64,000 nucleotides of DNA from Candidatus Rubrimentiphilum sp. (lineage in GTDB: Bacteria > Vulcanimicrobiota > Vulcanimicrobiia > Vulcanimicrobiales > Vulcanimicrobiaceae). Under the pieces are notes generated by a model. The model was given only the letters and a program-made list of their open reading frames with translations, did no database searches and was not told the DNA's origin. Position numbers and translations under genes: made by a program. The stretch is from the NCBI GenBank assembly GCA_036273135.1, contig DASUIF010000003.1, positions 122,742 through 186,741 of the forward strand, written 5' to 3'. Shown one piece after another: positions 8,260-43,820 of this stretch (position 1 is the first letter of the stretch; every line of letters starts with the position of its first letter).

Positions 8260-8260
8260 C

Positions 8261-9178
8261 GTGACGGCCCGCGCGCAATTCCCCGGCGAGCAAAGCGGCG
8301 GCGAGTTTCAGCGCCAGGGCGATGCTTTCCGCGAGCCGATTGCGGGAGAAGCCGGGCGTTATCATCTCTATATTTCGTGGGCGTGTCCTTGGGCTTCACG
8401 CACGATCATCGCGCGCAAGCTGAAGGGCCTCGAGGACGCGATCGGCATGAGCGCCGTCGATCCGATCCGCGACGAACGCGGCTGGGCGTTCCGGGACGGT
8501 CCCGGATACTCGCGTGACCCGATCAACGGCTTTTCGTTTTTGAGCGAAGCCTATGCCGCCGCCGATCCGCAGTACCGCGGACGTGTGACGGTGCCGGCGC
8601 TTTGGGACAAGCATACCGGAAGGATCGTCAATAATTCCGACGACGACATCATGCGCGCATTCGAAACGCAGTTCGAAGCATTTGCAACAAAACACGTCGA
8701 TCTCTATCCCGCGGCACACCGCGACGAGATCGACGCGCTCAACGAGCTCATCTACGAAACGGTCAATAACGGCGTCTACCGCGCGGGCTTTGCGACGTCG
8801 CAAGAATCTTATGAAAGGGCGGCATACGGCGTCTTTGAGACGCTCGACCGTTTAGAAGAGCGCTTGGCGCACCGCCGGTATTTGATCGCCGGGCATCCTG
8901 TGGAGACCGACTGGAAGCTGTTCGTGACGCTGATCCGTTTTGACGCGGTCTACTTCGGCCATTTCAAATGCAACCTGCGCCGCATCGTCGACTATCCTCA
9001 CCTTTGGGGCTATCTGCGCGATCTCTATCAGATGGACGGCATTGCCGAAACCGTGAATTTCGACCACATTAAACGTCACTATTACGTGACGCACGATGAG
9101 ATCAATCCCACGCGGATCGTTCCGATCGGACCGACCCTCGATCTCTTGGCGCCCTCGGGCCGCGAGAAACTCACCTAA
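8261..9178 (+). CDS. yqjG: Glutathionyl-hydroquinone reductase (Xi-class GST, YqjG/ECM4 family)
   Basis: 305 aa. Motifs: YHLYISWACPWASRT (CPWA catalytic motif), GRVTVPALWDK, VNNGVYRAGFATSQESY, HFKCNLRRI, GIAETVNFDHIKRHYY. Starts 1 nt after the stop of the MCO-ZIP gene. Confidence 0.9.
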   Translation: MTARAQFPGEQSGGEFQRQGDAFREPIAGEAGRYHLYISWACPWASRTIIARKLKGLEDAIGMSAVDPIRDERGWAFRDGPGYSRDPINGFSFLSEAYAAADPQYRGRVTVPALWDKHTGRIVNNSDDDIMRAFETQFEAFATKHVDLYPAAHRDEIDALNELIYETVNNGVYRAGFATSQESYERAAYGVFETLDRLEERLAHRRYLIAGHPVETDWKLFVTLIRFDAVYFGHFKCNLRRIVDYPHLWGYLRDLYQMDGIAETVNFDHIKRHYYVTHDEINPTRIVPIGPTLDLLAPSGREKLT

Positions 9179-9878
9179 GAATCCCGAGCGCCGGAAAGCT
9201 GACGTTTTGCAGAACGAGCGTGCTCGAAAAAGCGCCATCCCTTGAATTGGGCGCCGGTTGCCAATTGGCGTCGATCTCGGATATCCACCACACCGCCTGC
9301 GGGCCGTACGGTTTGAAAGAATAGTCGATTGTCGCGCTCCAACCGCCGGGGTTTTCCGCGTACGTCAGCTTGCGAACCTGGAACGTCGTACGATCGACCC
9401 AGAGCGCGCGCAGCGGATACTGATTGGGAGCGTTGAGCGGCCGCAAGAGCAAGTGATAGACGGCCGAGTCGTCGAGTTGCTCTTCGCCCGCGAGCGTGAC
9501 GTCGTAATGCGCGGCCCGTACCTGTGCGATGACGGGGAGTTTGGAAGGCGCAAACGGATCGGGCTGCGCGCTGCCCGGATAGACCGACGAAATGTTGAAA
9601 CCGAGCGGAGAATATGCCGGGCCTTCGCAGTTGGGACCTCGGCTCGTTTTTGGTTGATCCAGTCCTTGGTCGATCTCCACGGTCGCGCACCAATGATCGA
9701 ACGTGCGCAGCACGACGTGTTCGTTTCCGCGGGTGATGGCGCCGGCTGCGTCGCGGTGCGTGATCGCCGTGTCGAAAGCAACGTACGGGGGAAGCGCGCG
9801 AGCCTCCCAGGCGTCTTCGGCGTGAAAGAAGATCTGAAGCGGCGTGAGAACCGCGGCGAACATCGCGGCCGGCAGCAT
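9171..9878 (-). CDS. Hypothetical exported protein (possibly LolA-like fold)
   Basis: 235 aa with a hydrophobic N-terminus and beta-rich composition. No diagnostic motif. Confidence 0.45.
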   Translation of the reverse strand: MLPAAMFAAVLTPLQIFFHAEDAWEARALPPYVAFDTAITHRDAAGAITRGNEHVVLRTFDHWCATVEIDQGLDQPKTSRGPNCEGPAYSPLGFNISSVYPGSAQPDPFAPSKLPVIAQVRAAHYDVTLAGEEQLDDSAVYHLLLRPLNAPNQYPLRALWVDRTTFQVRKLTYAENPGGWSATIDYSFKPYGPQAVWWISEIDANWQPAPNSRDGAFSSTLVLQNVSFPALGILR

Positions 9879-9900
9879 GCTAACGCCTCATCACGCGGGG

Positions 9901-10353
9901 CTAGGAGCTGTAGCGGCGGCTGATCTCCTGGGCGCGCTGATACGTCTGCGTCGCGCGCGAATGAAACATGGCAGTTCCCGACGCTTCGGGCGGCATGCGC
10001 AAGACGATGTGAGTGCCTTGCGCGCTTGCCTCGACGGTGAGCGGAACGCGCGTTCCCAGCAGTATCGCGCGGCGGTACTCGTTGTGATCGACGCCGATTG
10101 CCGGCGGTCCCTGCGCGTACAAGTGAATGGTCGGGCCGGCCATCTCGCTCTCGACGGAAACGGCCAGCGCCCAATGCCCGCGTTCGGTTTCGGCCGCAAG
10201 CAACTCACCGAGCACCAGTTCGAGCGCAAACAGGTCCGCGCCCGGATCGCCGGCGAGCCCTCGTACCTCGTCAATGGCGCTGCGGCGCACGCGCGCGACC
10301 GAGAACGCGTCGGCGGAGTCGATCGACCAGTTCATCCATCTCAGTTCTTCCAC
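9901..10353 (-). CDS. Hypothetical protein, RsbW/SpoIIAB-like (GHKL anti-sigma-kinase-like) pattern with apparently degenerate catalytic residues
   Basis: 150 aa. The segment ALELVLGELLAAETERGHWALAV...IHLYAQGP resembles the N-box/G1 region of anti-sigma serine kinases but lacks the Asn and Asp. Weak, by-eye call. Confidence 0.35.
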   Translation of the reverse strand: MEELRWMNWSIDSADAFSVARVRRSAIDEVRGLAGDPGADLFALELVLGELLAAETERGHWALAVSVESEMAGPTIHLYAQGPPAIGVDHNEYRRAILLGTRVPLTVEASAQGTHIVLRMPPEASGTAMFHSRATQTYQRAQEISRRYSS

Positions 10354-10582
10354 AATTCCGGACTTGCCACGCCGGGCAAGCGTGTGATAGACTCCGCCGT
10401 GACATGTCCCGGCATCACCAACCCTTTGCGGTTCAAGAGATTTTCTTTTTCACGGCGTTGTTACCAATCGCTTGGTTGTTTACGCTGCTTTTCGGGCACA
10501 AGATCTTTGACCGCCTTCACCGTGGCCGCCGCTCGGGCCGTGGTCTCCTGACCCAGCCGGCTGAGTAGACCCCCCTCTACCC

Positions 10583-10611
10583 TTGTAGTGATTTTGGGCG
10601 GGTGATATACT
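10583..10611 (+). promoter_or_regulatory. Candidate sigma70-type promoter for rpoB: TTGTAG-17 nt-TATACT
   Basis: -35 at 10583-10588, 17-nt spacer, -10 at 10606-10611. About 145 nt upstream of the rpoB start. The upstream gene is divergent. Confidence 0.5.
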
Positions 10612-10647
10612 ATTCGCCTGTGCCCTGGCCGCTAGGCATATAAAAAG

Positions 10648-10692
10648 AAAGAACGAGTCACCACGAGCGGGGTGGTCGGCGTCGTTCTTTTT
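10648..10692 (+). promoter_or_regulatory. Long terminator-like hairpin in the rpoB leader (candidate attenuator)
   Basis: AAAGAACGA (10648-10656) pairs with TCGTTCTTT (10682-10690). Inner helix ACCAC/GTGGT; about 17 bp in total with two bulges. The 3' arm runs into TTTTT. Confidence 0.4.
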
Positions 10693-10754
10693 CGTGTGCT
10701 CGGGGCGGGCACGATCCGCTTCCTTCCTTATATACCACCGAAGAGAGAGAGATA

Positions 10755-14666
<3,912 letters not shown>

Positions 14667-14670
14667 AGAA

Positions 14671-14694
14671 AAGGGCCCCCGTCCGGGGGCCCTT
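14671..14694 (+). terminator. GC-rich hairpin immediately after the rpoB stop
   Basis: AAGGGCCCCC-GTCC-GGGGGCCCTT: perfect 10-bp stem, 4-nt loop, starting 5 nt after the TAG. Only a short T-run follows. Confidence 0.6.
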
Positions 14695-14758
14695 TCCCTG
14701 TCCTGAGTGAGCCGAAGAGTTAAAAAGGGATTAGAGTGAGCTGAGGGAATCCGCCCTG

Positions 14759-14782
14759 ATAGGCAGGCTTCAGCCTACCTAT
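14759..14782 (+). promoter_or_regulatory. Imperfect inverted repeat ATAGGCAGGC-TTCA-GCCTACCTAT upstream of the barrel gene
   Basis: 10-bp arms with one mismatch, about 40 nt upstream of the ATG at 14821. Confidence 0.25.
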
Positions 14783-14820
14783 TATTAGCGGCGCTATTTG
14801 CAAATCTGAAAGGGAAGCTC

Positions 14821-17800
14821 ATGAGCTCTTTTCATGGCAAGCAAAGTGCGCGGACGATTTTACATTTGTTCGCGGCACTTTTCATCGCTTGCTCGTTGCT
14901 CGTACAAACATGCGCGCCGGCGTTTGCTGGAACCACGGGGATCCTCAGCGGAACCGCAACGGATTCCGCAACGCAGGCACCATTAGCAGGCGTCCAAGTC
15001 GTCGCACTCGCGCCGACCGGACGCTATACGGCAACAACCAATAACAGTGGATTCTATTCCATAGCGGGCCTATCGCCCGACACGTACTCAGTTTCATTCA
15101 ATCTCTCCGGATACGAGCCGGTCTCGATCCCCGGTCAAAACGTCTTCGCCGATTTGACGACGACCGTCAGCACGACGCTGGTGAAGTCGCTGCGCACGAT
15201 CGCGCACGTGACCTCGCGCAGCGCGGGCGGCGCGTTCCAACCGAATCAAACGGTGAACACGTACAGCGTTACCCAGCATCAGGTCCAAACGATTCTGGGA
15301 ACGGCGCTGAACCTGGCGGAATCGACCCTGATCACCTCGCTGCCGGGCGGCTCGGCCGACTCGAGCGGCTATCCGGTTATTCGCGGCGGCCGCGAAAACG
15401 AAGAGAACTTCGAATTCGAAGGCATTCCGTATACCGACGCGTTCACCAACCAGTTCACCAACTCGCTGAGTACGCCCGGCTTGGGTGTGCAGAGCGCGCA
15501 GTTGACGCCGGGTCTTGGAAATGCGTCACAGGATAACTACGGAACGGGCACGTTCAACCTGATCGCCAGGCGCGGAACATATCCGGGCTTTGCGACGGGC
15601 CAGTTTGCAGTGGGCGCGCCGGCCTTCCGGCACCAGGCAAACTTGGAATGGGGATTCGCATCGCCCAACGGGCGGATCTCGGCCTACATGGCGCTGTCGG
15701 ACAACAACCAGAACAGCGCGTTCAACACGCTCACTACCCCCTGCACGCTGATCGGCACGTGCTTCTCGCGATTGTATCAGTTCAAACGCGAGTTCTTAGG
15801 GAACGTCGTTTACAAGTTCGGTAACAACAACAACCAAGCACTCCAGCTTTTCACGGACATCGCCCAGAACAACTTCTTCACAGGGTACGGGTTCGGGGGA
15901 AACAACGGCAACGGGCTGTGCATGGCGACCTGCGATCCGTTTACGCTGCAGCAGATGGCGGCATTTTCCGGATTTGCGAGCAACCCGATAAATGGGATAA
16001 CCTGTCCTTCGCCGCTGAACTGCGCGGGATACACGGCGCCTCCGCTGGGCAACCCGCCCAGTGCGGCCGCGCTTCTCGCCTATACCCGGATCCAGGGAAT
16101 TCAGAGCCTCCTACAGCTCTATCCCGGACAAACATCGGTCAATCAGACGTTGGGTTCGAACGGCTCGATGCCGCAGACCAATTATCAGCCTAACGCCGCA
16201 TTCAAGCTCGGCTACATTTGGAACATCAACAGCTCGAGCGTGCTCGAGATGATGGCGTACCATCTGGACGCCGTCACCACATTCGATCTTCCGCTTGCCG
16301 GCGGATATTCGTCCTTCAATGTCGCTCGCCAGCAGTTGCAAGGCGGCAGAACGTCGGGTTACAAACTCGACTATACCAAGCAGATGGGCGATAAGAACCT
16401 GCTCAAAGCCGGCGGTGAGTACAAGTACCTCATTCCGGTATTCGATGCGCCCGCCAACGACTTTGGGTTCATCAACGTGATGTTCGAGCATAGCGAACAG
16501 TACGATTTCTGGACACCCGCGCAATGCACGGCGATGAACACAGCGGCGGTCGGAATCCCCCCTGCCGCCTGTGGTTACATCTACAACAACGGCGTTTCCA
16601 ACGTAGCCTCACCGCAGACCCTTCCGAGGGCCTACGAGAACACGTCGGTCGAACGGCACGACTACGCCGCTTACATCGACGACACGTGGTCGCCGAACGA
16701 TAAGCTGAAGCTCGAAGGCGGTATCCGTTTCGACGGATCGAGCCTGGGTTATCCGAAGGCGCAGATCGATCCCTATACCTGCACCTCGGTCTTCTTGCCG
16801 ACGTACTCGACGGACGCCAACGGCGTTCTGCTGACGACGCCGAGCACGAACCCGAATGCTCAAACAACCTACACCAATCCGGTCACCAATCTGCCCGCGG
16901 TGAGCCCGCTCGGCACGTGTCCGGTGGCGACGTTCCCGCAATTGACCACGCTCTCGCGGCGTCCGCTCGTTCCTGAGCCGATTGTCGCGGCGACCTACCG
17001 TCTGGGCGCGAACGATTCCGTCCGCGCGTCATGGGGACGTTCGGTCGGCATGCCCAATCTGGGCCTGGTCGATTTCTCTGCCAACATCAACTATTTTGGC
17101 GGGCCGAATCGGCAGTTCTTCAAGATCCCCGGCTATACGGGAGATTGCGGAGTTCTTTCAGACCAAGTCTGTGCGAACTACGCCGAGCAACTCTACTGGG
17201 ATAACGCCCGCGAGTTCGCCGGCGGCGTTCCGCTGATGCCCGTTCGCCCGACGGTCTTCGTGAACGCGGACTTCTCCTGGGAACACCAATTCACGCGCGG
17301 ACTCTTGAACGGCGTTTCGTTCAAGCTGACGCCGTGGTACCGCAAAGCTCAAGATGAGACCGCCCTGGTTACAACGCCAAAGGTTGTCGGCGGCGTCATT
17401 CTTACCAATCCGATCAACGGCGCGATCATCTTCAACCCGTCGACGGCCAACAACCTCGGTAAGAACCAGGCGACCGGCGTCGAGATGCAGTTCACGAAAG
17501 AGCAAACCTACGGCCTCTCGGGTCAGGTGAGCTTCACGTATCAGAACGAACTCTCGAGTGTCATCCCGACCTCGGGCAGCGAGGACTTCTATCCGTCAAT
17601 CCCGGCGCAATCGGTATTGCTCGGGAACGTCTACCGCGCGGGGTTCCTCTCGCCATTCGTGGCGTCGTTCGACCTCTCGTACCAAACGCACAACGGCTGG
17701 AGAATCTCGCCTCAAACCCAATGGAACATCGGTTATCCGATCAGCCCCGGACTTATCACCTCGGCCTTTGTTAACGGTCAGCCCTACAACTTACCGTTTA

Positions 17801-18237
17801 CAAACGCTTGCCCCGGCTGCTCGACTTCGGGCACCGGACAGTGGGTCGATCCGATGAACCCGGGCTCGTTCTTCGCACCGAATGTCGCGGCCAACCGCGG
17901 TATTCCGATGCAGGCGGCCAACGGCGGCAAACTCTCGCACCCGAGTTCGTTCACCAACCTCACCATCGAATACAATGCTCCGAAGACATGGACCGCCGGC
18001 GTGGAGGTCTTCAATCTTTTCGGTGCACTGTACGGCGGACCGTCGCTCAACGGACGCTGGCAGCCGCTTGCCAATGGAATTTCAGGCCCGCTGACGGGCC
18101 AGAACTCCACCGGCCTGAACTTCCCGCAATACGGCATGATCGGAAACTACGGAGCCTTGCGTCACGGTACGAACGCGTACATCGACACACCGAACGGCAT
18201 CCGGAGCTTCGTGTTCTACTTCCAAGTGAAAATGTAA
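14821..18237 (+). CDS. Outer-membrane TonB-dependent-receptor-like protein with N-terminal carboxypeptidase-regulatory-like domain
   Basis: 1138 aa. Signal peptide (CAPAFAGT). CarboxypepD_reg pattern GILSGTATDSATQAPLAGVQVVALAPTGRYTATTNNSGFYSIAGLSPDTYSV. Plug-like segment GYPVIRGGRENEENFEFEGIPYTD. Long beta-rich barrel ending ...SFVFYFQVKM. Confidence 0.85.
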   Translation: MSSFHGKQSARTILHLFAALFIACSLLVQTCAPAFAGTTGILSGTATDSATQAPLAGVQVVALAPTGRYTATTNNSGFYSIAGLSPDTYSVSFNLSGYEPVSIPGQNVFADLTTTVSTTLVKSLRTIAHVTSRSAGGAFQPNQTVNTYSVTQHQVQTILGTALNLAESTLITSLPGGSADSSGYPVIRGGRENEENFEFEGIPYTDAFTNQFTNSLSTPGLGVQSAQLTPGLGNASQDNYGTGTFNLIARRGTYPGFATGQFAVGAPAFRHQANLEWGFASPNGRISAYMALSDNNQNSAFNTLTTPCTLIGTCFSRLYQFKREFLGNVVYKFGNNNNQALQLFTDIAQNNFFTGYGFGGNNGNGLCMATCDPFTLQQMAAFSGFASNPINGITCPSPLNCAGYTAPPLGNPPSAAALLAYTRIQGIQSLLQLYPGQTSVNQTLGSNGSMPQTNYQPNAAFKLGYIWNINSSSVLEMMAYHLDAVTTFDLPLAGGYSSFNVARQQLQGGRTSGYKLDYTKQMGDKNLLKAGGEYKYLIPVFDAPANDFGFINVMFEHSEQYDFWTPAQCTAMNTAAVGIPPAACGYIYNNGVSNVASPQTLPRAYENTSVERHDYAAYIDDTWSPNDKLKLEGGIRFDGSSLGYPKAQIDPYTCTSVFLPTYSTDANGVLLTTPSTNPNAQTTYTNPVTNLPAVSPLGTCPVATFPQLTTLSRRPLVPEPIVAATYRLGANDSVRASWGRSVGMPNLGLVDFSANINYFGGPNRQFFKIPGYTGDCGVLSDQVCANYAEQLYWDNAREFAGGVPLMPVRPTVFVNADFSWEHQFTRGLLNGVSFKLTPWYRKAQDETALVTTPKVVGGVILTNPINGAIIFNPSTANNLGKNQATGVEMQFTKEQTYGLSGQVSFTYQNELSSVIPTSGSEDFYPSIPAQSVLLGNVYRAGFLSPFVASFDLSYQTHNGWRISPQTQWNIGYPISPGLITSAFVNGQPYNLPFTNACPGCSTSGTGQWVDPMNPGSFFAPNVAANRGIPMQAANGGKLSHPSSFTNLTIEYNAPKTWTAGVEVFNLFGALYGGPSLNGRWQPLANGISGPLTGQNSTGLNFPQYGMIGNYGALRHGTNAYIDTPNGIRSFVFYFQVKM

Positions 18238-18246
18238 GGAGCAATC

Positions 18247-19410
18247 TTGACTAACTACAAATACATCGCCGCCGTAGTGGTCGGAGTGCTCCTTGCGGGG
18301 TGCTCCGCCAACGGTACCGCGAGCCCGCCGACTTCGGTCGTATCGAACCTAAACGCAGACGTCCTTCAACTCGCCGTAGGTACGGCGAACATGGGACAAG
18401 ATGGGGGCGCGATTGGCCTGAACGTCGTAACGACGTTCAGGCAGCCCAACGGGAATTCGGCGGCGTTGGTCAACACGCCAACGATCACTGGCCCCGCGGG
18501 GCTTGTCGTGCCTGCTTGCGGGTCAGGCTGCATAGATGCGGGTACAAACCACATGAGCGCAGCGCCGCAAAACGTCAACCCCGGCGTAGCCAACCCTGTT
18601 ACGGTCTTCGGTCAGACAAACGGCGTTTTTTCTTACGCGATCGCGCCGGATAACACGTCGACGAGCGGGGCGGCTTCGTACAACCTAAACCTCCAGCCGT
18701 TTTTCGCTACGGTCGGAAACTTGCGATACATAGGCGGCCCTCCCGCGTACCCGTTCTTTAAAGACGGAACCTACCCGGGTGGAACCGCCTCAATATCGTC
18801 TGGCGGTTCGACCACAAGCTTCTTCAATGGCTACACGCAAGGCTTTACGGAATTTCAACTGACTCCAGTCGCTGGATCCTATACGCTGAGCGACCTCGTT
18901 GCCACGGGCAATGCCGGGAGCCAGACCTTTACCGCTTCAAGCACCCTGTCGAATCTGACGCCGTTGCCCGCTTTAGCTGCGCCAACGTTCGTAAAGGACG
19001 GATTAGGCGGTGGAAATGGCACGGTGACCGTTCCTGCGGATGCACGCGTTGTCGAAACCATGATCTACGTCAACGATCTGGTGCCGGTTTTTGGCGGCTC
19101 GGTGACCGAACCGCGCTGGTACACGATTGGCCCGATTCGGGGCACTGGTGTGCAAGCGTTCACGTTACCTGACTTCCTGGGACCTTGCGGCGGCGCCGCC
19201 GGGACCGGCTGTCAGAACAACTCTGCAACACGCACGCAGACTATCTTGACCGGAACGACGTTCCGGATCTACGCGGCAACATACGATTATCCGGCGTTCG
19301 AAGCTTCACCGCCGGGAAATACTCAACAGTCCCCGACAATCAACGGCGGCGCGGCCACCAGCAACCAAGCGGACATCACGACCTCACCCTTTGTGTCGGC
19401 GGTTTACTAA
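18247..19410 (+). CDS. Lipoprotein, function unknown
   Basis: 387 aa. Lipobox LLAGCSANG. Thr/Gly/Ser/Pro-rich and beta-rich. Starts 9 nt after the barrel gene. Confidence 0.7.
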   Translation: MTNYKYIAAVVVGVLLAGCSANGTASPPTSVVSNLNADVLQLAVGTANMGQDGGAIGLNVVTTFRQPNGNSAALVNTPTITGPAGLVVPACGSGCIDAGTNHMSAAPQNVNPGVANPVTVFGQTNGVFSYAIAPDNTSTSGAASYNLNLQPFFATVGNLRYIGGPPAYPFFKDGTYPGGTASISSGGSTTSFFNGYTQGFTEFQLTPVAGSYTLSDLVATGNAGSQTFTASSTLSNLTPLPALAAPTFVKDGLGGGNGTVTVPADARVVETMIYVNDLVPVFGGSVTEPRWYTIGPIRGTGVQAFTLPDFLGPCGGAAGTGCQNNSATRTQTILTGTTFRIYAATYDYPAFEASPPGNTQQSPTINGGAATSNQADITTSPFVSAVY

Positions 19411-19436
19411 GAGCGAACCGTCGCCGCAAGCAATCG

Positions 19437-19470
19437 GGCCCCGGCATTTATGCCGGGGCCTTTTGTTTTG
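19437..19470 (+). terminator. Rho-independent terminator
   Basis: GGCCCCGGCA-TTTA-TGCCGGGGCC (perfect 10-bp stem) followed by TTTTGTTTTG. Confidence 0.8.
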
Positions 19471-19670
19471 GGTAAGAGCAACGCAGTGCAAGAAACCGTG
19501 CTGGTCATCGCAGAGCCGATCGAACGCGAGGAGCGCCGCGTCGTTCTCCCGATTCGCGTCAGCGCGCGTCCGCGCGACTATTTTGCGTCGGCGTGTTTGC
19601 TGGCTTTTATGGGATTCTTCTGGATGCTGGTCTTCAGTCTACGGTTCTTCGTTCAGAGCCATCATCTGCG

Positions 19671-19937
19671 CTAACGCGCGTCGGCGCTGTTCTTGTCAGA
19701 CGTGATCTCGCCGCGGGTATTGCGCGCGCGCCGCGCTTCGGCGCTCAGCTGCTGGAGCTCCCGGACGTAGAAGGCGACGAGGCGCCGGTCGATGTCGCGG
19801 CCCAGGTTCTCGTGGATGATCCGCCGCAGATCGCGCTCCATCTGATCGATCCCCGGCGGCGCCGGTAGACGGGAATACTCCGCAGCAAGATCTTTGATGC
19901 TGCGCCAAACCCTATCGGGGGCGCCGGGACCGTCCAT
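19671..19937 (-). CDS. Hypothetical protein (88 aa, helical)
   Basis: ORF with plausible composition and no motif recognised. Confidence 0.3.
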   Translation of the reverse strand: MDGPGAPDRVWRSIKDLAAEYSRLPAPPGIDQMERDLRRIIHENLGRDIDRRLVAFYVRELQQLSAEARRARNTRGEITSDKNSADAR

Positions 19938-19981
19938 TCACGGTCCTATGCCCAAGTTCGGCAAAAATAAAACACCGGCCG

Positions 19982-20080
19982 CTAGGCGCGGCGGTTCGAT
20001 TCCGCGATCCCGCCCATATACATCAAGATAGTGACCACGATGCCGGCGGCGGCGATGAGCAGAACGATCGTTTGGTTCAT
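19982..20080 (-). CDS. Possible 32-aa single-TM peptide (MNQTIVLLIAAAGIVVTILMYMGGIAESNRRA)
   Basis: Translated by hand; below the ORF-track length cutoff. ATG start, hydrophobic core, basic tail. Confidence 0.2.
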   Translation of the reverse strand: MNQTIVLLIAAAGIVVTILMYMGGIAESNRRA

Positions 20081-20110
20081 GCCGCCCAAGTTAGCCGCCG
20101 GGGCCGGGCG

Positions 20111-20479
20111 TTACTGCGGCAGGGTGATGCGGTAAGCCGCGACCTTGCCGTCGGAGTCGAAGCGCACGATAACCGGGGCCGTACCGTTGCTGAAGTTTGC
20201 GCGGTAGGTATACTCGTTCTTGAGTCCGTCGTTGCTGACATACGTCAGACCCTTGTAGTCGCCCAGCTTGTGCAGTTTGTCGGAGAGCAGGCCGACTTGC
20301 GCCCGCGTGACTTGTTTCTGCAGCGCGCTGTCGAAGTTTTGGGTGACGGCAGCGCCGTCGTCATTGTAGACGGCTTTGGTAACGCCGTCGGCTTGATTTT
20401 GGGCGTTGGCGGCAGGCGACCCGCAGCTCGCCAGCCCCGCGCCGAGAATCAGGCATACGATAAGGCGCGGTGTGCGCAT
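20111..20479 (-). CDS. Small lipoprotein, function unknown
   Basis: 122 aa, lipobox GAGLASCGS. Directly abuts the upstream gene (20480). Confidence 0.65.
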   Translation of the reverse strand: MRTPRLIVCLILGAGLASCGSPAANAQNQADGVTKAVYNDDGAAVTQNFDSALQKQVTRAQVGLLSDKLHKLGDYKGLTYVSNDGLKNEYTYRANFSNGTAPVIVRFDSDGKVAAYRITLPQ

Positions 20480-20929
20480 TTAGAGCTGACCCCATCCGTA
20501 GTTGACCATCGAGACCTGCCTGCTCGGACCGTACGCCGCCGCCGCGACGCGCGTTCTCGGCCGGCTCCCAAATCCGGTCTGCATGGCGGTCTGGCGCCTT
20601 TGCTGGACGATCACCGAGTGTTGGTACGCCACTTCACGCTTGAGATCGACGATCTCGGCAAGCGCGTTGTTGTAGGCGCTGCGCTCGCTCGTGTATGCAG
20701 CCTGCATGTTGCTGTTCTGGGATTCCAATGCTGCCTGCCGGCGCGCGTCTTCCGCGTAACGCTCGTGAACCTTCCGGTTATGCTGAATGATCAAATAGGT
20801 CGCCAAGCCGGCGCCTAATAGGATGTTGCGCGTGCTTGCCGCGCCGTCGGCGAGCGCGGCGGAGGGGGCCGCGGCGGCCAGCATGGCAGCCATGGTCGTT
20901 CCGGCGATCGCCCGTTTCCAGATATTCAT
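20480..20929 (-). CDS. Exported protein with coiled-coil-like middle, function unknown
   Basis: 149 aa, signal peptide ...AAAPSAALADGA, one further hydrophobic segment, Gln/Ala/Arg-rich helix. Confidence 0.55.
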   Translation of the reverse strand: MNIWKRAIAGTTMAAMLAAAAPSAALADGAASTRNILLGAGLATYLIIQHNRKVHERYAEDARRQAALESQNSNMQAAYTSERSAYNNALAEIVDLKREVAYQHSVIVQQRRQTAMQTGFGSRPRTRVAAAAYGPSRQVSMVNYGWGQL

Positions 20930-20999
20930 TCCTCCAGTATTCCCTTCTGGAGAAAAATCACGGGCAGGCGGTCGCCAGCTGAGCGCAAATTCCTGGGCC

Positions 21000-21701
21000 G
21001 TGGTTCACACGGAAGAACGGATTTCACTCGACGACGGCGCGCAGACGACGCTGGAACGCTGGGGAGACCGCGGACCGGCGATTCTTGCGATTCACGGCAT
21101 GACGGGTTCGCGCAAAGCCTGGGAGCAGCTGGCCGCCCACTATGGTGACCGGGCCCGAATCTACGCCTACGATCAGCGCGGCCACGGTGACGGGCCGCCG
21201 GGCGGCCCGATGACCCTGCACCGCTCCCTGCTCGACCTCTACAACGTCATGGCCGCGATTCCGGAAGGCGTCGATACGCTGATCGGACATTCGTGGGGCG
21301 GCGCTATCGCCGTACTGGGCGGACGCCGTTTTGACTGCGCCCGCGTCATCGCGATCGATCCGATGATCCGCCAGTCCGATGCGGCGTGGTACGACGCCTT
21401 TTTGCGCGAGCTGAAAAAGCAGAAGATTCCAAACAAGGCAATCAAAAATCTGCGCGACGAGAATCCGCCGGCAACGTGGGATCTGCGCGCGGATCTCGAG
21501 CGTTATCCCAAACCGCTGCTTCTGGCCGTCGGTGAAGGCCCCGACAGCTTGTTTACGCTCGACGATATGAAATTCGTGCGCGAACGCGGCGGTCCGAACG
21601 TCGCGCTGCGCGTCTTCGAAGGCCAAGGCCACAATCTGCACCGCACCGATTTCGAACGCTTCACGCGCGAATTCGACACGTTCCTCGCGCGCACGCCCTA
21701 A
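21000..21701 (+). CDS. Alpha/beta-fold hydrolase
   Basis: AILAIHGMTGSRKAWEQ (HG oxyanion motif), nucleophile elbow GHSWGG, C-terminal GQGHNLH. The ORF-track start (20823) overlaps the convergently oriented start region of the 20480-20929 gene. The in-frame GTG at 21000 is preferred, but the start is uncertain. Confidence 0.75.
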   Translation: MVHTEERISLDDGAQTTLERWGDRGPAILAIHGMTGSRKAWEQLAAHYGDRARIYAYDQRGHGDGPPGGPMTLHRSLLDLYNVMAAIPEGVDTLIGHSWGGAIAVLGGRRFDCARVIAIDPMIRQSDAAWYDAFLRELKKQKIPNKAIKNLRDENPPATWDLRADLERYPKPLLLAVGEGPDSLFTLDDMKFVRERGGPNVALRVFEGQGHNLHRTDFERFTREFDTFLARTP

Positions 21702-21704
21702 GCG

Positions 21705-22706
21705 TCACGGCGCGGTCTTCATGCCGGCGGTGCCCGGAGGCGCAGAAGGCGTCCAATCAGGAGAACAGACGCGCATATAGACCGCACCCGGCACGGCTTG
21801 GCACGGCGGCGGAACGTCGCCACCCGTAGGTCCGCTCGTTCCGGAGTCGTCTCCTTGCTCCGTATCGAAGAGCGCCCAACTATAGCCGCCATCGTAACTT
21901 TCGTAATACTGCGACGTCGTCGTCTGCCTCCAAACGTATTTAGGCCATTCCGCGTTGGAGCACTCCGAATGACTGGGGCAATCTTCCCAGTGTCCGATGA
22001 CCTGAGCGGTGACGATCGCAGCCGTGAGGCGACCTTGCGGCGGCGAAGCGGAAGGCGCGGGCGTATACCGCAGCACGATGGTGAACCCGCTGGGCGCGGT
22101 TTGCGTAGAAAGTTGCAGTTCGCGAGCGACGTGCGCGGACGTTAAGCGCACATAGGTAATCTGATTGCCGCCCGCGAGCCACGGCTGCGTGCGATCGAAA
22201 TGCACTTCCGCCGCATGAAGTTCGGCGGATCGATATAGCTCTGTGTAAACGAGCGAACCGGGGTCTTGCAGTGCTGTAACCGGATAGGTTCGCGCGAAAA
22301 ATCCTCCGACGCCGGAAACCGGTGCGCCATCCGCTACCGGCATGCCGCCCGGTTTCGCGTAGAGCAGCCGTTGAATGCGGCGATTCGCTTTGTCATAGCA
22401 ATAGGCGATGAAGTGTGCACGATTCTGCGCATCGCGGAAGAAGAAATCCACTTCGTGTCCGTCGGCATTGGAAGAGCCGTAGGCGTCGAGCGGGGGCGTG
22501 AAGATCGCCCACGCGGAGTCTTCCTCGGCCTCCAGGCGATCCGCCAGCGATTCGATCGCCGTTTCGGCGGTGCGTTGCTGCGCGAACAAAGCATTCCAGC
22601 GCAGCACCTGGGCGGCGGAGGTCAAGATAAGAACGCCGATAACGGTGACGACGGCCGCGGCGATGACCGTTTCGAGCAGTGAAAAGCCGCGCTGCGAGCG
22701 CTTCAC
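21705..22706 (-). CDS. Large prepilin-type N-terminal cleavage/methylation-domain protein (pseudopilin-like)
   Basis: VKRSQRGFSLLETVIAAAVVTVIGVLIL is a class III signal (G|FSLLE). The GTG at 22706 gives a canonical short leader. The ORF-track start at 22847 would overlap the divergent MFS gene. Confidence 0.7.
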   Translation of the reverse strand: MKRSQRGFSLLETVIAAAVVTVIGVLILTSAAQVLRWNALFAQQRTAETAIESLADRLEAEEDSAWAIFTPPLDAYGSSNADGHEVDFFFRDAQNRAHFIAYCYDKANRRIQRLLYAKPGGMPVADGAPVSGVGGFFARTYPVTALQDPGSLVYTELYRSAELHAAEVHFDRTQPWLAGGNQITYVRLTSAHVARELQLSTQTAPSGFTIVLRYTPAPSASPPQGRLTAAIVTAQVIGHWEDCPSHSECSNAEWPKYVWRQTTTSQYYESYDGGYSWALFDTEQGDDSGTSGPTGGDVPPPCQAVPGAVYMRVCSPDWTPSAPPGTAGMKTAP

Positions 22707-22749
22707 GCCCTTTACAAGTGCCCGTCGTTGAGCCGCCGAAGGCTGCGGA

Positions 22750-24273
22750 GTGTCGAAGTCGCTCGAAAAACGGGGAACGCTCGTGCTTGCGGCCGCAATT
22801 TTCGGCTCGGGAATGGCGCTGCTCGACGGAACGGCGGTCAACGTCATTCTGCCGCTCGTTCAGCGCGATCTCCATGCGGGCGCGCAGTTCGTTCAATGGG
22901 TGGTCGAGGGCTACGCGTTGTTTGCGTCGGCGCTCATACTCGTCGGCGGCGCGCTCGGCGACGCTTACGGGCGGCGCAAGATGTTCGTCACGGGTACGGC
23001 GCTCTTCGCTGCAGCTTCGATCGGTTGTGCGATGGCGCAGACGATCGAAGAGCTGGTCATCGCGCGCTGCGTCCAGGGTGTGGGCGCGGCGTTGCTGGTC
23101 CCGGAAAGTTTAGCGCTCATCAGCGCGCAGTTCGATCCAAGGGCACGCGGCAAAGCGATCGGAAGCTGGGCGGCATTTTCCGCAATCAGCGGAGCGATCG
23201 GCCCGGTGCTAGGCGGCGTGATCGCGCAAAATGTTTCATGGCGTTGGGTATTCTTACTGAACGTACCGCTTGGCGCGCTCGTCATTTTCATTTCGTCGTG
23301 CTGGATAAAAGAAAGCCGCGACGAATCGGCCGGTCCACATATCGATTTTGCCGGCGCTGCCTTGGCTACTGCGGGACTTGGCGGGCTCGTTTATGCGCTG
23401 ATCGGGCTGCAGGGGTCCTATAACACGCTGTCGCTTGCGACCGGCATCGTGTCCCTCGCCGTCCTCGCCGCTTTCGTCGTGTATGAGGGACGCGAGAAGT
23501 CGCCGATGATGCCGTTGCGTTTTTTTGGATCGCGCGACTTCGCGTCTGCGAACGCGTACACGTTTTTGCTCTACGCCGGATTAGGGGGAAGTCTTTTCTT
23601 CGTCCCGTTCGATTTGATCAACGTGCAGCATTACACGCCGGTCGAGGCCGGTGCCTCGATGCTGCCCATGACGACATTACTCTTTCTATTCTCGCGCTTC
23701 AGCGGCGCGCTGCAGACGCGGTTCGGCGCGCGCGCCATGCTTTCGAGCGGTGCTTTCGTGGCCGCCATGGGGTTTCTGCTGTTCGCGATCGCAGGCGAAG
23801 GGAAGAGCTACTGGTTGTCATTTTTCCCGGCGTCGGTCGTTTTGGGAATCGGCGCGGCGATCTTCGTCGCGCCGCTCACGGCGACGGTGATGAACTCGCT
23901 GGAAACCGCTCACGCGGGCGTAGCCTCCGGCGTGAACAACGCCATCTCGCGCGCTGCCGGACTGATTGCGGTGGCGGCGTTAGGCCTGGTGCTTAGCGCC
24001 GTGTTCTATCGCGTCTACGACGCGCAAATCGCCCGGGCTCCAATTGCGGTGCAGACGCGGCGGACTCTAGCCCGCGACCGCGCGCGGCTATTGACCGGAT
24101 ACGTCTCGGGAAATATTGCGGCCGCCGACCGGCCGGTGGTGCGGGCCATCGTGGACCGCTCGTTCGTCGGGGGATTCGCGTGGGCGATGGCGGCCTCGGC
24201 CTCCCTCGCGCTGGCGGCGGCCGTGATTGCAAAATTTTCGTTCGGTCGCCTGCGGGCGGCTAGAACTCGCTGA
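22750..24273 (+). CDS. MFS transporter, DHA2 (EmrB/QacA-like) family
   Basis: 507 aa, 14 hydrophobic segments. Motifs: LDGTAVNVILPLVQRDL, GALGDAYGRRKMF, VQGVGAALLVP. Confidence 0.85.
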   Translation: MSKSLEKRGTLVLAAAIFGSGMALLDGTAVNVILPLVQRDLHAGAQFVQWVVEGYALFASALILVGGALGDAYGRRKMFVTGTALFAAASIGCAMAQTIEELVIARCVQGVGAALLVPESLALISAQFDPRARGKAIGSWAAFSAISGAIGPVLGGVIAQNVSWRWVFLLNVPLGALVIFISSCWIKESRDESAGPHIDFAGAALATAGLGGLVYALIGLQGSYNTLSLATGIVSLAVLAAFVVYEGREKSPMMPLRFFGSRDFASANAYTFLLYAGLGGSLFFVPFDLINVQHYTPVEAGASMLPMTTLLFLFSRFSGALQTRFGARAMLSSGAFVAAMGFLLFAIAGEGKSYWLSFFPASVVLGIGAAIFVAPLTATVMNSLETAHAGVASGVNNAISRAAGLIAVAALGLVLSAVFYRVYDAQIARAPIAVQTRRTLARDRARLLTGYVSGNIAAADRPVVRAIVDRSFVGGFAWAMAASASLALAAAVIAKFSFGRLRAARTR

Positions 24274-24329
24274 CCTCGCGTGCAACTCTACAGGGAGCGC
24301 GGCTGCCTTGCAGCCGGGCGCCTTTTAAC

Positions 24330-24659
24330 ATGCGGGACATCGAAACGCGGGTTATCTTCCTGGATGGCGATTGGGACATCGCCCGGCGGGACGAGCTCGA
24401 GCGGCTCCTGAAGCCGGCCTACGACTCGCCGGGCAACCTGATCGTGGACATGCACGCGGTGAACTATGCCGACAGCACGATTTTGGCGGCGCTGATCGTC
24501 TTGCGGAACCGGCGGCGGAGCAAGGGCTTGGCGTTGCCGAGCCTGGTCATCGGCTCGCGCCAGGTGCGCCGGCTGCTGAGCATCTCGGGCCTCATCGAGG
24601 CCTTTCCGCTCTACGAGACTCTCGAGGAGGCAAAAGCCGGCGACTCCTTGACCCCCTAG
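24330..24659 (+). CDS. STAS-domain protein (anti-sigma-factor antagonist family)
   Basis: 109 aa. LDGDWDIARRDEL...LIVDMHAVNYADSTILAALIVL...GSRQVRRLLSISGL matches the SpoIIAA/RsbV layout, including a Ser in the DS(T/S) position. Confidence 0.8.
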   Translation: MRDIETRVIFLDGDWDIARRDELERLLKPAYDSPGNLIVDMHAVNYADSTILAALIVLRNRRRSKGLALPSLVIGSRQVRRLLSISGLIEAFPLYETLEEAKAGDSLTP

Positions 24660-24676
24660 GGCCCGCGCCGTATAAT
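24648..24676 (+). promoter_or_regulatory. Near-consensus sigma70-type promoter for rpoC: TTGACC-17 nt-TATAAT
   Basis: -35 at 24648-24653 (inside the last codons of the STAS gene), 17-nt spacer containing the STAS stop, -10 at 24671-24676. About 115 nt upstream of the rpoC TTG start. Confidence 0.55.
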
Positions 24677-24790
24677 AACCGTCTGTGCCCGCGCTTGGCG
24701 GCCAGCGGCAACGGTGGGCCTCCTTACGTGACCACGTGAGACGAACGCCCTGCGTAAGCCCGGCCAACGCGCGACGGCCCCGGAGAATCC

Positions 24791-28606
<3,816 letters not shown>

Positions 28607-28612
28607 GCAGAA

Positions 28613-29236
28613 GTGAAGGGCCGCGCCGCCGTCTTCGTCCGGTACCGCAGCGGCGACGGCGCGGGACACGTCGGCTGGGCGTTCGAGTACGAACCGCCCA
28701 CGCAAATCGACGCGGGCTCGGTTGAGAATCACTCGGGAGGCATCCATGCGGATGCCTCCCACATGGATTTTTGGAACGAGCTGAGCTCCGATCCCGTCGC
28801 ATGTATGCGCAAGAACGAGTACGACGACGTCAAGTACGTGGACGTGGACGATGCCGATCCGGTCAGCGCGTACGAAACGGTGCTCTGGATCGAAAAGCAT
28901 GCCTACGCCGCGATCTTGCGCAACTGCTTGGACGACGCATACGACGTGTTGCGCGCCTACGGCGTCGCCGATCTCGAACCGCCTTCGCACGATTGGTTTC
29001 CGAAGAACTGGTTCGCCCATTTCAACGGGACGCAGCGTCCCGTGGCCGAGTTCGATTGGAACGATGGCCGCACCGAACAGGCCGGAAGAAAGAACGATCT
29101 GCCGGATCCCAATTCGCTCGAACCCAAAGCTCCCGATTGGCGCAATCCGATGCGCGCCGTCTTTTCGTTATTTCGGCTGGAGCTGTTCCGCGATTTCTTT
29201 CGGGGACTCTTTCACCGCCGCCGGCGCCGCGCCTAG
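28613..29236 (+). CDS. Hypothetical protein; possible permuted papain-like (LRAT/NlpC-P60-like) His...Asn-Cys arrangement
   Basis: 207 aa. GTG 6 nt after the rpoC stop, with strong G/C third-position bias. Contains GHVGWAFEY and, later, YAAILRNCLDDAYDVL. The last 69 nt overlap the 3' end of the convergent helicase gene. Confidence 0.5.
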   Translation: MKGRAAVFVRYRSGDGAGHVGWAFEYEPPTQIDAGSVENHSGGIHADASHMDFWNELSSDPVACMRKNEYDDVKYVDVDDADPVSAYETVLWIEKHAYAAILRNCLDDAYDVLRAYGVADLEPPSHDWFPKNWFAHFNGTQRPVAEFDWNDGRTEQAGRKNDLPDPNSLEPKAPDWRNPMRAVFSLFRLELFRDFFRGLFHRRRRRA

Positions 29237-32200
29237 ACTGACCGCCTGCGCGGCCTCCTGATACGCGCAGAGGAGGTTCACCAGCGCCATCTGATCGGGC
29301 GTCTTGCAGGGCGATTCCAGCAGCCGCGGGCTGCAGACGATGACCGACGCGCACTGAGCCCGCGAGATCGCCACATTGAAACGATTTTTATCGAACAGGA
29401 AAGCGGCATCGCGCGGCAGCGTTTGAGAGCTCGACGTCGCCATGCTGTAGATAACGACCGCCGCCTCTTGGCCCTGAAACTTGTCGACGGTGCCGACGCG
29501 CACGCATGCGTATCCCGCCGCCTCCAATAACTCTTTGATGCGGATTCGCTGCAAGTTGTACGGCGCGACGATCAAGATGTCGTCTTGCGTCATCGGCCGG
29601 GCGGGAGCGCTTCCGATGGTCACGCGGCCTTGCAGCAGCCGCCCGACGGCGCCGGCGATCCACGCGGCTTCCTCATCGGATTTGCGTCCGTTGCCGTCGT
29701 GCTCGACCGGCTCGAAAACGGGACCGGCGGTACCGAAGCCCGGCGCATCGATCGCGTTGCTTTCCGTCGAGGGCGCGTGGTGAAGGCGGCCGTCGTAGAT
29801 GTTTTCCGAAATAAAACGGCTAAGCGCGGGCTGCAACCGGTACGTCGTATCCAAAAAGACGCCGCGATCCGGCGGAATGGTGCGATCGCCCGCTAGGAGA
29901 TGCTCCAGGATGGAGAGATCCGTGCCGGCCGGATGCGTGCCTTTCGTTACTTGCGGGAGCTGGAGCGGATCGCCCAGCAGCACGACGTTCTTCCCGGCCA
30001 AAGACGCGATCAACGCATCGGCCAGCGAGACTTGCCCGGCCTCGTCGATGAAAACGTAGTCGAACTCGCGCACGAGACTTTCATCCGCCCACGCGTATGT
30101 CGTGCCGGCCGCGAGCAGACAAAGTTCTGAAGTGAGCGCGGCGATGTCGTCCAAGCTTTCCATCATGGGCCAATCGCTCAGCGCTTCGTACTTCGATCCT
30201 TCGGTCGTCTTGCTTTCCTTGTGGCATCCGTGGAATCGAAACGCGCGTCCTTTAGCAACTTCCTCGACCTTGCGCAGCAAATTGTGCACCGCCTTGTGGC
30301 TCTGCGCCACGACGCCGACGCGCTTGCCCGCTTGCATCAGGTCGACGATCGCGTGAGCTCCGGCAGTCGTTTTTCCCGAGCCGGGCGGCCCTTGCACGAA
30401 GAGCGCGCTGCGATCGAGATTGCCGATGACGCTCGACACCGAAGCCGCCGTAACGCGCCCGGGCTGAATCGCCCCTGCCTGTTTTAGCGCCGGCGCGCGC
30501 GCGAGAAGCATCTGCAACGTCGCAGGGTGGTCGTTCTGCAGCGTTCCGGCGGCATAGGCTTGCGCGAGCCGCTCCATGGCGGCTTGCTTCTTTGCTATGG
30601 GAATGGGCGTTCCCGGAATGAGCGCGCGCAGCGCATCGGGCTCGATCGTTTTGGTGAGTTTGATCTCCAGTTCGCGCTTTGCACCGTCGATGCAAACGAT
30701 TTCGCCGGCTCCTTTCCGCGAGTAGGGATCGTGGCAACCCTTGAACGGGATCCGGTGCTCCTGCGGCGGGAACGCGTACGTGTAGACGAGGTTGCGGTCT
30801 TCGGGACTCCGTTTGTAAGGAGCGACATCTGAGCGCAGCGCGAGACCGCCGAGCGCCTCATCATCGTACTCTTGCAGATCTTGCGGGCTCGCGCAGCGGT
30901 CGAAATACTTCCACCACTCGGGCTTGTCTTCGCGCCGATGGTATTGCAACAGATTGCCGAGCAGCCAGCGGGCGCGCGGCTCGTCGGTCCAGTCGCGCAA
31001 CTCGGCGGCCGAATCCGGCGCCGGAAGACCGTCGAGGAAGGTTTTCTCGAGATCGGTTTGGCCGGCTTCGGAGGCCTTGACCTCCGGCGCGCCGCGCCAC
31101 TCGAGCGGCTTTTCACGCCCGGCGTTGAGCTCGTCGCGCAGAACGCGCAGCCATTCCCGCAGCCGGAACGTGGAGCGGCAGTCGTCTTCGTTATACGCGC
31201 GGATGTCTTCCAAGATGCTGTCCTCGGGTTTGTCGAGCCACGACTCGAACATGACGATGGACTCGTCGCCGCCTTTGACGTGCGTCTCGCGCTGCAAACC
31301 GTAGAACGCTTCCACTTTCTTGATTGAATAGGAAGGCTGTGAGATGACTAGGCCTTGCCGCACGACCGGATAGAGATCGACGAAGACGCCTTGCCGCAAA
31401 AAGTCGTCGATCTCGCGTTCGCGCGAGCCGTAGCGCCCCATCAATCGCTTGAGGACGGAGATTTCATAAGAGGCGTAGTGGTAGACGTGCGCGCCCTGAA
31501 ACTCTTTGCGGCGCTGTACGACGAAATCGACGAACGATTCGAAGGCCTTGCGCTCCAGCTGCGGGTCGGTTCCCCAAAAAGCGCGGTACGTCTCCTCGGC
31601 CGGGAGATAGAGACCCCATAGATATTCGAGGCCGCGGTCGGCGCGATACAGCGGGTCGCCCTCGATATCGAAGAAGATGTCGCCCGGGTCGGGCTCGGGA
31701 AGTTTGGCAAATCCGCCGAGTTCGTCGCACGAGCGGAACTTGTAGAAATGTTCTCCTGCGCCGTTCTTGCGCGAAACGCGGTGCAGATGCTGCTGCTGCG
31801 CCTGATCCTTTAGCCGCTCGAACGTGCCCTCCGTCATCTTTTGCGGTTTCTCGCCGGCGGCGGCTAACTGCGCAAGCGTGTGTATTCCGCCTTTTTCGAG
31901 CTTGGCGATTTGATCGCGCCGGATCCCCGCGACCAAACTCAAATGATCGTCGTCGTCGCGTCGTTTGGTGCACCGCGCATTCCACGGACAGACGACGCAA
32001 TGGGCGCACTCGACCGGGTAGACGCCGGCGCCCGTTTCGACGCTCGTCAAAAACGATCGTTTTAAGTGCCGGTAATACGCGGCGTAATCGGCTAGCCTGA
32101 AGGGCGCATTTTCGCCGCTACCCAGGACGATGTGTCCGAATTCCGGGGCCGTGCCTTGCACGCGCTCGACGTGCTCGCTGTAGTTGCAGAGCTGAACGAG

Positions 32201-40870: not shown

Positions 40871-41021
40871 GCGCAGCCTGAAATTTTGCAGCCACGCGTG
40901 ACGTAAGCAGAGTCTTCGCTGCGAAGTTCATCGGAGCTGCGCCGTGTGACGGCAGCGAGCATACGCCGCAAGAGTGAGAGCTGTATGCATAGTGCGCGAG
41001 CCGTACTGCAATTGCTGTATG

Positions 41022-43751: not shown

Positions 43752-43820
43752 TCCCGCATTCGAGCGCACCTTAGAGCGCATAAGAGGAGCGAAGCCCGCC
43801 TCCTCGTAAGCGTCGTACAG

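Follow-up and report, generated by a model that had tools for sequence, protein, structure and literature searches.

The genes for the beta and beta' subunits of RNA polymerase, rpoB and rpoC, are separated by 10,124 nucleotides (nt; positions 14667–24790) in the 64,000-nt stretch of Candidatus Rubrimentiphilum sp. DNA analysed here (contig DASUIF010000003.1; hereafter the window), and about ten unrelated genes lie between them. This split is a trait of every Vulcanimicrobiaceae genome or contig that we examined. Together with expression signals dedicated to each gene, the family-wide split constitutes a supported lineage trait that was previously unreported, and we consider it very likely that rpoB and rpoC of the Vulcanimicrobiaceae have formed two separate transcription units since before the sampled genera diverged. 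New elements described here are the promoter and leader core of rpoC, the promoter and attenuator-like leader of rpoB, and a conserved core of genes within the gap. In the literature we found no report of an rpoB-rpoC split in Eremiobacterota, nor of an rpoC-specific leader, a search of incomplete coverage whose outcome is absence of evidence only. The rpoB product of the window, DNA of a soil bacterium, is 100% identical to an NCBI protein of a Candidatus Rubrimentiphilum MAG (metagenome-assembled genome). Candidatus Rubrimentiphilum belongs to the family Vulcanimicrobiaceae (formerly Baltobacteraceae) of the phylum Vulcanimicrobiota, also named Eremiobacterota or WPS-2.

Separation of rpoB and rpoC in the window and across the family

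Both gene products are of full length and carry all their domains (Table 1); the reading frames are neither fused nor split. The gene coordinates agree with the initial annotation, made from the sequence alone, which had placed the end of rpoB at 14666 (stop codon TAG, 14664–14666) and the start of rpoC at 24791. Its list of interval genes (outer-membrane barrel, lipoprotein, two small exported proteins, hydrolase, pseudopilin, MFS transporter and STAS-domain protein) was likewise borne out by Pfam and signal predictions. Four of the genes had been placed on the opposite strand; the number holds with a changed membership, the hydrolase being on the plus strand and the open reading frame (ORF) at 19671–19937 making up the four. 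All four minus-strand genes (19671–19937, 20111–20479, 20480–20929 and 21705–22706) are conserved at the protein level in relatives and show a coding-like guanine-plus-cytosine (GC) content by codon position.

The ribosomal-protein genes that commonly precede rpoB had been reported missing, and tblastn indeed returned no match to rplJ or rplL, either in the window or among the Eremiobacterota loci, whereas 39 control loci were matched. The genes upstream of rpoB instead encode a multicopper oxidase, a GST and a LolA-like protein, and the top coding-like ORF directly upstream (9901–10353) is on the minus strand, in line with the divergent neighbour described earlier.

rpoB and rpoC are among the most conserved of bacterial gene pairs, a linkage usually put down to the need for both subunits to be made in equal dose, regulated together and assembled close to where they are synthesized. 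To place the window against this background, we used an rpoB query and took 80 control loci among the matches listed, one genome per species, from Bacillota, Actinomycetota, Chloroflexota, Cyanobacteria, Patescibacteria and other phyla, with no close relatives among the matches listed; 72 had enough DNA downstream of rpoB to be informative. The rpoC start lay 16–504 nt past the end of the rpoB alignment in 71 of these 72 loci, which upholds the near-universal adjacency that the initial annotation had taken as established. The sole exception among the matches listed was L047 (L-numbers denote loci on the compared contigs), an Acidimicrobiales metagenome-assembled genome (MAG; JBBREA010000047.1) with a 6.2-kb gap; separation of rpoB and rpoC therefore does occur elsewhere, but rarely. 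The L047 gap resembles that of the window in holding unrelated genes on both strands. It differs in being known from a single contig, with rpoB and rpoC adjacent in four other Acidimicrobiales-type loci, and neither a lineage-wide trait nor dedicated leaders are evidenced there. Its interval (8137–14301) carries minus-strand genes for an ACT-domain protein, a SpoU methylase and a P450, and plus-strand genes for an enoyl-CoA hydratase and a CoA-transferase.

Relatives were sampled independently of the gap, by taking rpoB or rpoC homologues of 82–94% identity and inspecting each on its own contig. All nine further related genomes reached in this way, via rpoB or rpoC alone, are split. The gap measures 3,514 nt in L165 (2.66 Mb contig), 5,339 nt in L083 (3.9 Mb), 8,209 nt in L172 (0.87 Mb), 29,963 nt in OY970388.1 (2.28 Mb) and 45,288 nt in CAVZQC010000004.1 (0.94 Mb). 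It exceeds 10 kb in L081 (2.18 Mb contig), in two assemblies of Candidatus Cybelea (24–246 kb contigs) and in two MAGs of another Vulcanimicrobiaceae species (72–216 kb contigs); in L082 (37 kb contig) rpoC is directly preceded by an MFS gene and not by rpoB. With the gap hydrolase as anchor, a scan of metagenomes yielded about 20 more contigs with the order rpoB, hydrolase, rpoC and gaps of about 3.3–10.1 kb, including 10,059 nt in L084 (a near-identical strain), 9,790 nt in L088 and about 3.3 kb in L103. Measured gaps across the family thus range from about 3.3 kb to 45.3 kb. The suggestion that the arrangement might be a lineage marker or a sign of rearrangement is supported by these data, the split being present in all Vulcanimicrobiaceae examined, contigs of 0.9–3.9 Mb included.

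Promoters and leaders of the two genes

With 11 of 12 consensus bases matched, the rpoC promoter of the window ranks first among the promoter-like sites in a scan of 19.5 kb (10000–29500). In an alignment of 260 nt upstream of rpoC from 20 loci, the consensus consists of a -35 element near TTGAC and a -10 element TAnAAT, about 17 nt apart. The -10 element stands at a fixed distance from the leader in 20/20 loci, and the -35 element is degenerate in L103, L110, L113 and L123. Near-consensus hexamers, a spacer within 16–18 nt and a conserved position identify it as a sigma-70-type promoter. The gene upstream of rpoC varies by lineage and is often on the opposite strand (F420-like or hypothetical), and the promoter and leader are always present.

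Downstream of this promoter lies a 5' leader of 103–202 nt among the loci, in which the CTGTGCCC box is followed by a hairpin (P1), a 54-nt core, the Shine-Dalgarno sequence GGAG and the start codon, a TTG or GTG at the same position in 20 loci. P1 varies freely in sequence and length, keeps its shape, and is absent in two loci. In the core, 30 of 54 alignment columns are invariant. Its mean pairwise identity is 0.825, compared with 0.654 at third codon positions of the adjoining rpoC, which indicates purifying selection at the nucleotide level. With R1, a covariance model built from the core, 25 loci were matched, five of them outside the training set, once each and always directly upstream of rpoC; neither the remainder of about 1 Mb of Eremiobacterota DNA nor 1.4 Mb of control DNA, normal rpoB-rpoC spacers among it, gave a further match. 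The leader matched no Rfam 15 family even at E <= 10. A mini-ORF within the core was also considered and rejected, as the indels are not multiples of three and conservation has no 3-nt periodicity.

Evidence for an RNA structure rests solely on the curated core alignment, in which 96.4% of cells are paired, versus 27–51% in slid-partner controls. The isolated core folds alike, into an interrupted stem with an apical hairpin, in 19/20 sequences, and 3 of 17 pairs show compensatory change. From a raw MAFFT alignment of the whole leader RNAalifold recovered only the invariant outer helix, and the window leader alone folds no better than its shuffles (z = -0.22). Pairing is high but few pairs vary, and the core structure is therefore supported, not proven.

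The strongest competing explanation reads the conserved stretch 5' of rpoC as a DNA operator bound by a transcription factor, with the near-palindrome ACGTGACCACGT as an example, and not as an RNA structure. Most core positions are invariant, so that conservation is chiefly of sequence, and the shuffle-based covariation signal is modest, both as an operator would predict. On the other hand, two inner-hairpin pairs change on both sides and remain paired (L110, L127), P1 keeps its shape despite unrelated sequences and lengths, and the core folds identically on its own in 19 of the 20 sequences. We regard an operator as unlikely, and a leader core that most probably acts on the mRNA, through translation or stability, would set the output of beta'. 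A more specific proposal is that the core represents a new class of cis-regulatory RNA that senses RNA polymerase or a free subunit and tunes beta', replacing operon linkage together with the box and the rpoB attenuator; this is possible, although we hold it to be doubtful.

At rpoB, ten related loci share a promoter with a TTGAC(G) -35 element and an extended -10 element TGnTAnACT. A box of the form CT(A/G)TGCCC lies 6 nt past the -10 element at both the rpoB and the rpoC promoter, and in the window the two boxes are identical. In about 0.8 Mb of Eremiobacterota loci, a -10 element with the box at 6 nt was found at the rpoB and rpoC promoters and at one other site only. Such a box could be a shared control point, perhaps at initiation. 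The rpoB leader contains a hairpin in 10/10 loci (-18 to -26 kcal/mol), followed by U4-5 and located 67–77 nt into the leader, with stems that differ in sequence between loci; judged from sequence, hairpin and U-run look like an attenuator. Rfam matches to the rpoB leader were at chance level only (E >= 0.41, scores far under the gathering threshold). The proposal of two independent promoters is supported by these signals, conserved in 20 loci at rpoC and in 10 at rpoB.

These observations suggest the following scheme. rpoB would be transcribed from its own extended -10 promoter through a leader with an attenuator-like hairpin and U-run, and in most lineages this unit would end at the hairpin behind the gene. 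Several lineages have a strong hairpin of unrelated sequence 3' of rpoB, that of L169 with a canonical U-tract. rpoC would be transcribed, independently of rpoB, from its own near-consensus sigma-70-type promoter, and the shared CT(A/G)TGCCC box may keep beta and beta' in step. Attenuation in the rpoB leader and a regulatory role of the rpoC leader or box are likewise what we infer from these sequences.

Alternatively, the two genes might be separated yet coupled, with most rpoC mRNA supplied by transcription running on from rpoB or from a gene on the plus strand of the interval, and the rpoC promoter playing a minor part. The hairpin directly behind rpoB, described earlier with 10 bp and found here to have 11 bp (14670–14695), is followed by no U-tract, and MFS and STAS genes on the same strand precede rpoC, whose -35 box sits within the 3' end of the STAS gene. 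Against this, four minus-strand genes and a strong terminator intervene. The terminator had been noted near 19437–19470; at 19436–19471 it is the top terminator-like site of 10000–29500 in our scan and has the make-up of an intrinsic terminator. Furthermore, the rpoC promoter and leader are always there although the upstream neighbour varies and is often on the opposite strand, and read-through is implausible over gaps of 30–45 kb. With minus-strand genes, terminator, rpoC promoter and gap lengths taken together, cotranscription appears implausible, as had been proposed, and we consider a coupling by read-through quite improbable.

Several points weigh against two independently transcribed genes with a structured, regulatory leader as a lineage trait. 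The hairpin at 14670–14695 resembles an intrinsic terminator only in part, and the terminator scan passed over it because of the missing U-tract. In L165, the next gene begins 3 nt past rpoB, and rpoB is therefore not always monocistronic. In the core, 11 of the 17 pairs are invariant and covariation is thin. A helix proposed to close the leader, by pairing of the 5' CTGTGCCC box with the stretch preceding the Shine-Dalgarno sequence, was rejected, its duplex energies being no better than those with shuffled tails (mean z = 0.03). The contigs anchored on the hydrolase are biased towards split genomes and were used for anatomy, not frequency. Finally, the relatives sampled represent one family, with deeper Eremiobacterota and the cultured Vulcanimicrobium alpinum outside the sample.

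The interval and its history

Protein-level mapping of the gap genes revealed a gap core common to all three clades seen. From rpoB onwards, it consists of two minus-strand genes for small exported proteins (20111–20929 in the window), then a plus-strand cassette encoding an NAD-binding dehydrogenase, a DUF5069 protein and an alpha/beta hydrolase, then rpoC; a small F420-oxidoreductase-like minus-strand gene often lies between cassette and rpoC. The shortest gaps (L103, L106 and L165) barely exceed this core. Orthologues of the hydrolase stand upstream of rpoC in L081, L083 and many further loci. Because the gap core is shared across clades, the split appears to be ancestral and to predate the divergence of the sampled genera, and the sequences point to an old split that later expanded.

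In the clade of the window, the dehydrogenase and DUF5069 genes have been lost from the core. The TonB-like barrel, the lipoprotein and two small ORFs were gained next to rpoB, and a pseudopilin, an MFS transporter and sometimes a STAS gene adjoin rpoC. The barrel was mapped in the gap only within this clade (L084, L086, L088 and L095). Insertions in other lineages include polysaccharide-synthesis genes, toxin-antitoxin pairs, Kdp genes, and aldehyde or pyrroloquinoline quinone (PQQ) dehydrogenases. In the scheme that we favour, an early wedge would have parted rpoB from rpoC, made up of the two opposite-strand small exported proteins and the dehydrogenase-DUF5069-hydrolase cassette, often also with the opposite-strand F420-oxidoreductase-like gene. 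Once linkage was broken, the interval would have been free to gain and lose genes, reaching about 3.3 to 45 kb.

A variable interval would also result if a mobile element or genomic island had recently entered an otherwise normal rpoBC operon at strain level. The TonB-like gene, lipoprotein, pseudopilin, MFS and STAS genes are clade-specific, interval content varies among relatives, and GC content is slightly lower at 15–19 kb. In contrast, no integrase, transposase, tRNA, flanking repeats or sharp composition break was found in the gap, and lineages whose rpoC is only 82% identical to that of the window share the split, the core genes, and the promoter and leader of rpoC. An assembly or binning chimera, in which truly adjacent genes were wrongly joined around 10 kb of other DNA, had been raised as a concern. 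The window derives from a MAG, and an odd inverted rpoB fragment at the contig end of L113 attests to artefacts in such data. The concern is not upheld, as the comparison of synteny shows the same order in over 25 contigs that come independently from separate projects, including near-identical L084 and contigs of 0.9–3.9 Mb, and as the gap genes keep their order and composition is continuous over both junctions. Since the split is found in all sampled relatives, misassembly and strain-level insertion are ruled out for practical purposes, the insertion retaining a very slight probability and the chimera a negligible one.

Table 1 Features of the window around rpoB and rpoC.
Feature	Position	Strand	Details
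rpoB promoter	10583–10588 / 10603–10611	+	-35 TTGTAG, 17-nt spacer, extended -10 TGaTATACT; 10 related loci
CTGTGCCC box of rpoB	10618–10625	+	6 nt past -10; identical box, same spacing, at rpoC promoter
rpoB leader hairpin, then UUUUU	10646–10692	+	attenuator-like
rpoB (RNA polymerase beta)	10755–14666	+	1303 amino acids (aa); all six Rpb2 Pfam domains
GC-rich 11-bp hairpin directly 3' of rpoB	14670–14680 pairs with 14685–14695	+	-23.2 kcal/mol
CarboxypepD_reg and TonB-dependent-receptor-like outer-membrane barrel	14821–18237	+	1138 aa; Pfam; clade-specific insertion
Lipoprotein	18247–19410	+	387 aa; lipobox LLAGC; no Pfam family; clade orthologues 62–68% identical
Intrinsic-terminator-like hairpin, then TTTGTTTT	19436–19471	+	11 pairs, 9 GC
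Small ORF, clade-conserved	19450–19674	+	74 aa; 77–90% identity in L084–L087
Small ORF	19671–19937	-	88 aa; relatives 66–84% identity; GC by codon position 0.71/0.48/0.82
Small lipoprotein	20111–20479	-	122 aa; weak DUF3887 match; gap core, 49–92% identity, all three clades
Small exported protein	20480–20929	-	149 aa; signal peptide; gap core
Alpha/beta hydrolase	21000–21701 (ORF opens 20823)	+	Abhydrolase_6, E = 5e-16; gap core
Pseudopilin	21705–22706 (ORF extends to 22847)	-	N-terminal methylation motif, PF07963; clade orthologues 56–79% identical
MFS transporter	22750–24273	+	MFS_1, E = 1e-50
STAS-domain protein	24330–24659	+	Pfam; presence varies among close relatives
rpoC promoter	24648–24676	+	TTGACC, 17-nt spacer, TATAAT; conserved in 20 loci
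rpoC 5' leader	24683–24790	+	108 nt in window
Core of rpoC leader, putatively structured (model R1)	24707–24760	+	54 nt; R1 score here 79.5 bits
rpoC (RNA polymerase beta')	24791–28606	+	TTG start; 1271 aa; all five Rpb1 Pfam domains

Further observations concern single genes of the interval. The two small exported proteins hold the minus-strand position between rpoB and rpoC family-wide (window, L093, L099, L103, L106, L110, L113 and L118), and Pfam and signal predictions revealed no sequence link between these proteins (20111–20929) and RNA polymerase. The hydrolase at 21000–21701 has a 34-aa internal deletion relative to its L081 and L083 orthologues; the GHSWGG nucleophile motif and the HNLH motif are both preserved. 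The window, L084 and L085 carry the STAS gene, which was undetected in L082 and L086 (rpoC 94–96% identical to that of the window) and seems to be retained as a remnant in L088. The dehydrogenase-hydrolase cassette, with or without DUF5069, was also found without rpoB or rpoC within 10 kb on either side (L120, L131, L133, L143 and L152), and these contigs therefore represent further dislocation or paralogous copies. The rpoB fragment of L113 (14–430, minus strand) covers residues 1055–1192 and stands at the very beginning of a 155-kb contig, on which rpoC follows about 9.6 kb downstream; an inversion, a piece of a pseudogene or an artefact of the contig end could each account for it.

The window as a whole contains no tRNAs and no Rfam family at gathering score. 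The ORF at 6331–8259 joins multicopper oxidase domains to a C-terminal ZIP zinc-transporter-like region, an unusual combination. Downstream of rpoC, a large gene at 29168–32647 (minus strand) encodes an RNase_H_2-like and superfamily-1 helicase protein; it also occurs near the 3' side of rpoC in L082, L083, L084–L086 and L088; in L166 the distance is about 8.5 kb. As this helicase gene is retained 3' of rpoC, the downstream flank is steadier than the upstream flank. Two tandem genes for large LuxR/GerE-type regulators (925 and 878 aa) occupy 40974–46457, with a GC content of 0.55–0.56 compared with about 0.61 elsewhere.

Relation to known systems and significance

In E. coli, an attenuator lies between rplL and rpoB, and the terminator-like hairpin upstream of rpoB here recalls it. 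Other lineage-fixed departures from the standard rpoB-rpoC layout are the fused rpoBC of Helicobacter and Wolbachia and the dispersed rpo genes of some green-algal plastids, to which cyanobacteria and plastids add a split of rpoC1 and rpoC2. Those cases differ in involving altered reading frames or organelles, whereas here the genes are intact and linkage alone is lost, in a free-living family.

The reviews and surveys covered by our search describe rplKAJL-rpoBC as widely conserved, with the listed exceptions at rplKA/rplJL or rpoC1/rpoC2. As in the canonical operon of E. coli and most bacteria, both genes are intact in the window, and neither their order nor their orientation differs. It departs from that operon in having no rplJL upstream, rpoC at a distance of 10.1 kb (3.3–45 kb in relatives), opposite-strand genes and terminators in between, and a promoter and leader of rpoC's own. 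The locus is not a canonical operon, because adjacency and an upstream rplJL are both missing.

The mycobacterial rpoB-rpoC operon has its own promoters under drug-responsive control (PMC6181997), and is similar in that RNA polymerase core genes depend on dedicated promoters and not on those of ribosomal-protein genes; there, however, rpoC is adjacent to and co-transcribed with rpoB, whereas here it would form its own unit. Brandis, studying the cluster of ribosomal and RNA polymerase operons, described how selection for linkage is relaxed by a small insertion, with neighbours drifting apart thereafter (PMC8046335). The gap expansion seen here fits the same evolutionary pattern, with the difference that the breaks described there separate operons, or part rplL from the gene that follows, and the break here falls inside the rpoB-rpoC pair.

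We thus describe the loss of a conserved gene linkage, to which a candidate new cis-regulatory RNA is attached. In a free-living family without rpoB-rpoC linkage, where gaps reach 45 kb, the rationale for that linkage is put to a natural experiment. The conserved promoters and leaders offer concrete sequences for testing the balance of beta and beta', and such experiments are within reach in a cultured family member, Vulcanimicrobium alpinum WC8-2, whose complete genome is AP025523 with rpoB as WPS_21400. Metagenomes can be screened for the lineage by two simple markers, the split and the leader motif, and the expanding gap illustrates how a broken linkage frees a site for gene gain. The Vulcanimicrobiaceae are a clear exception to a near-universal rule, by which the reason for the rule becomes testable.

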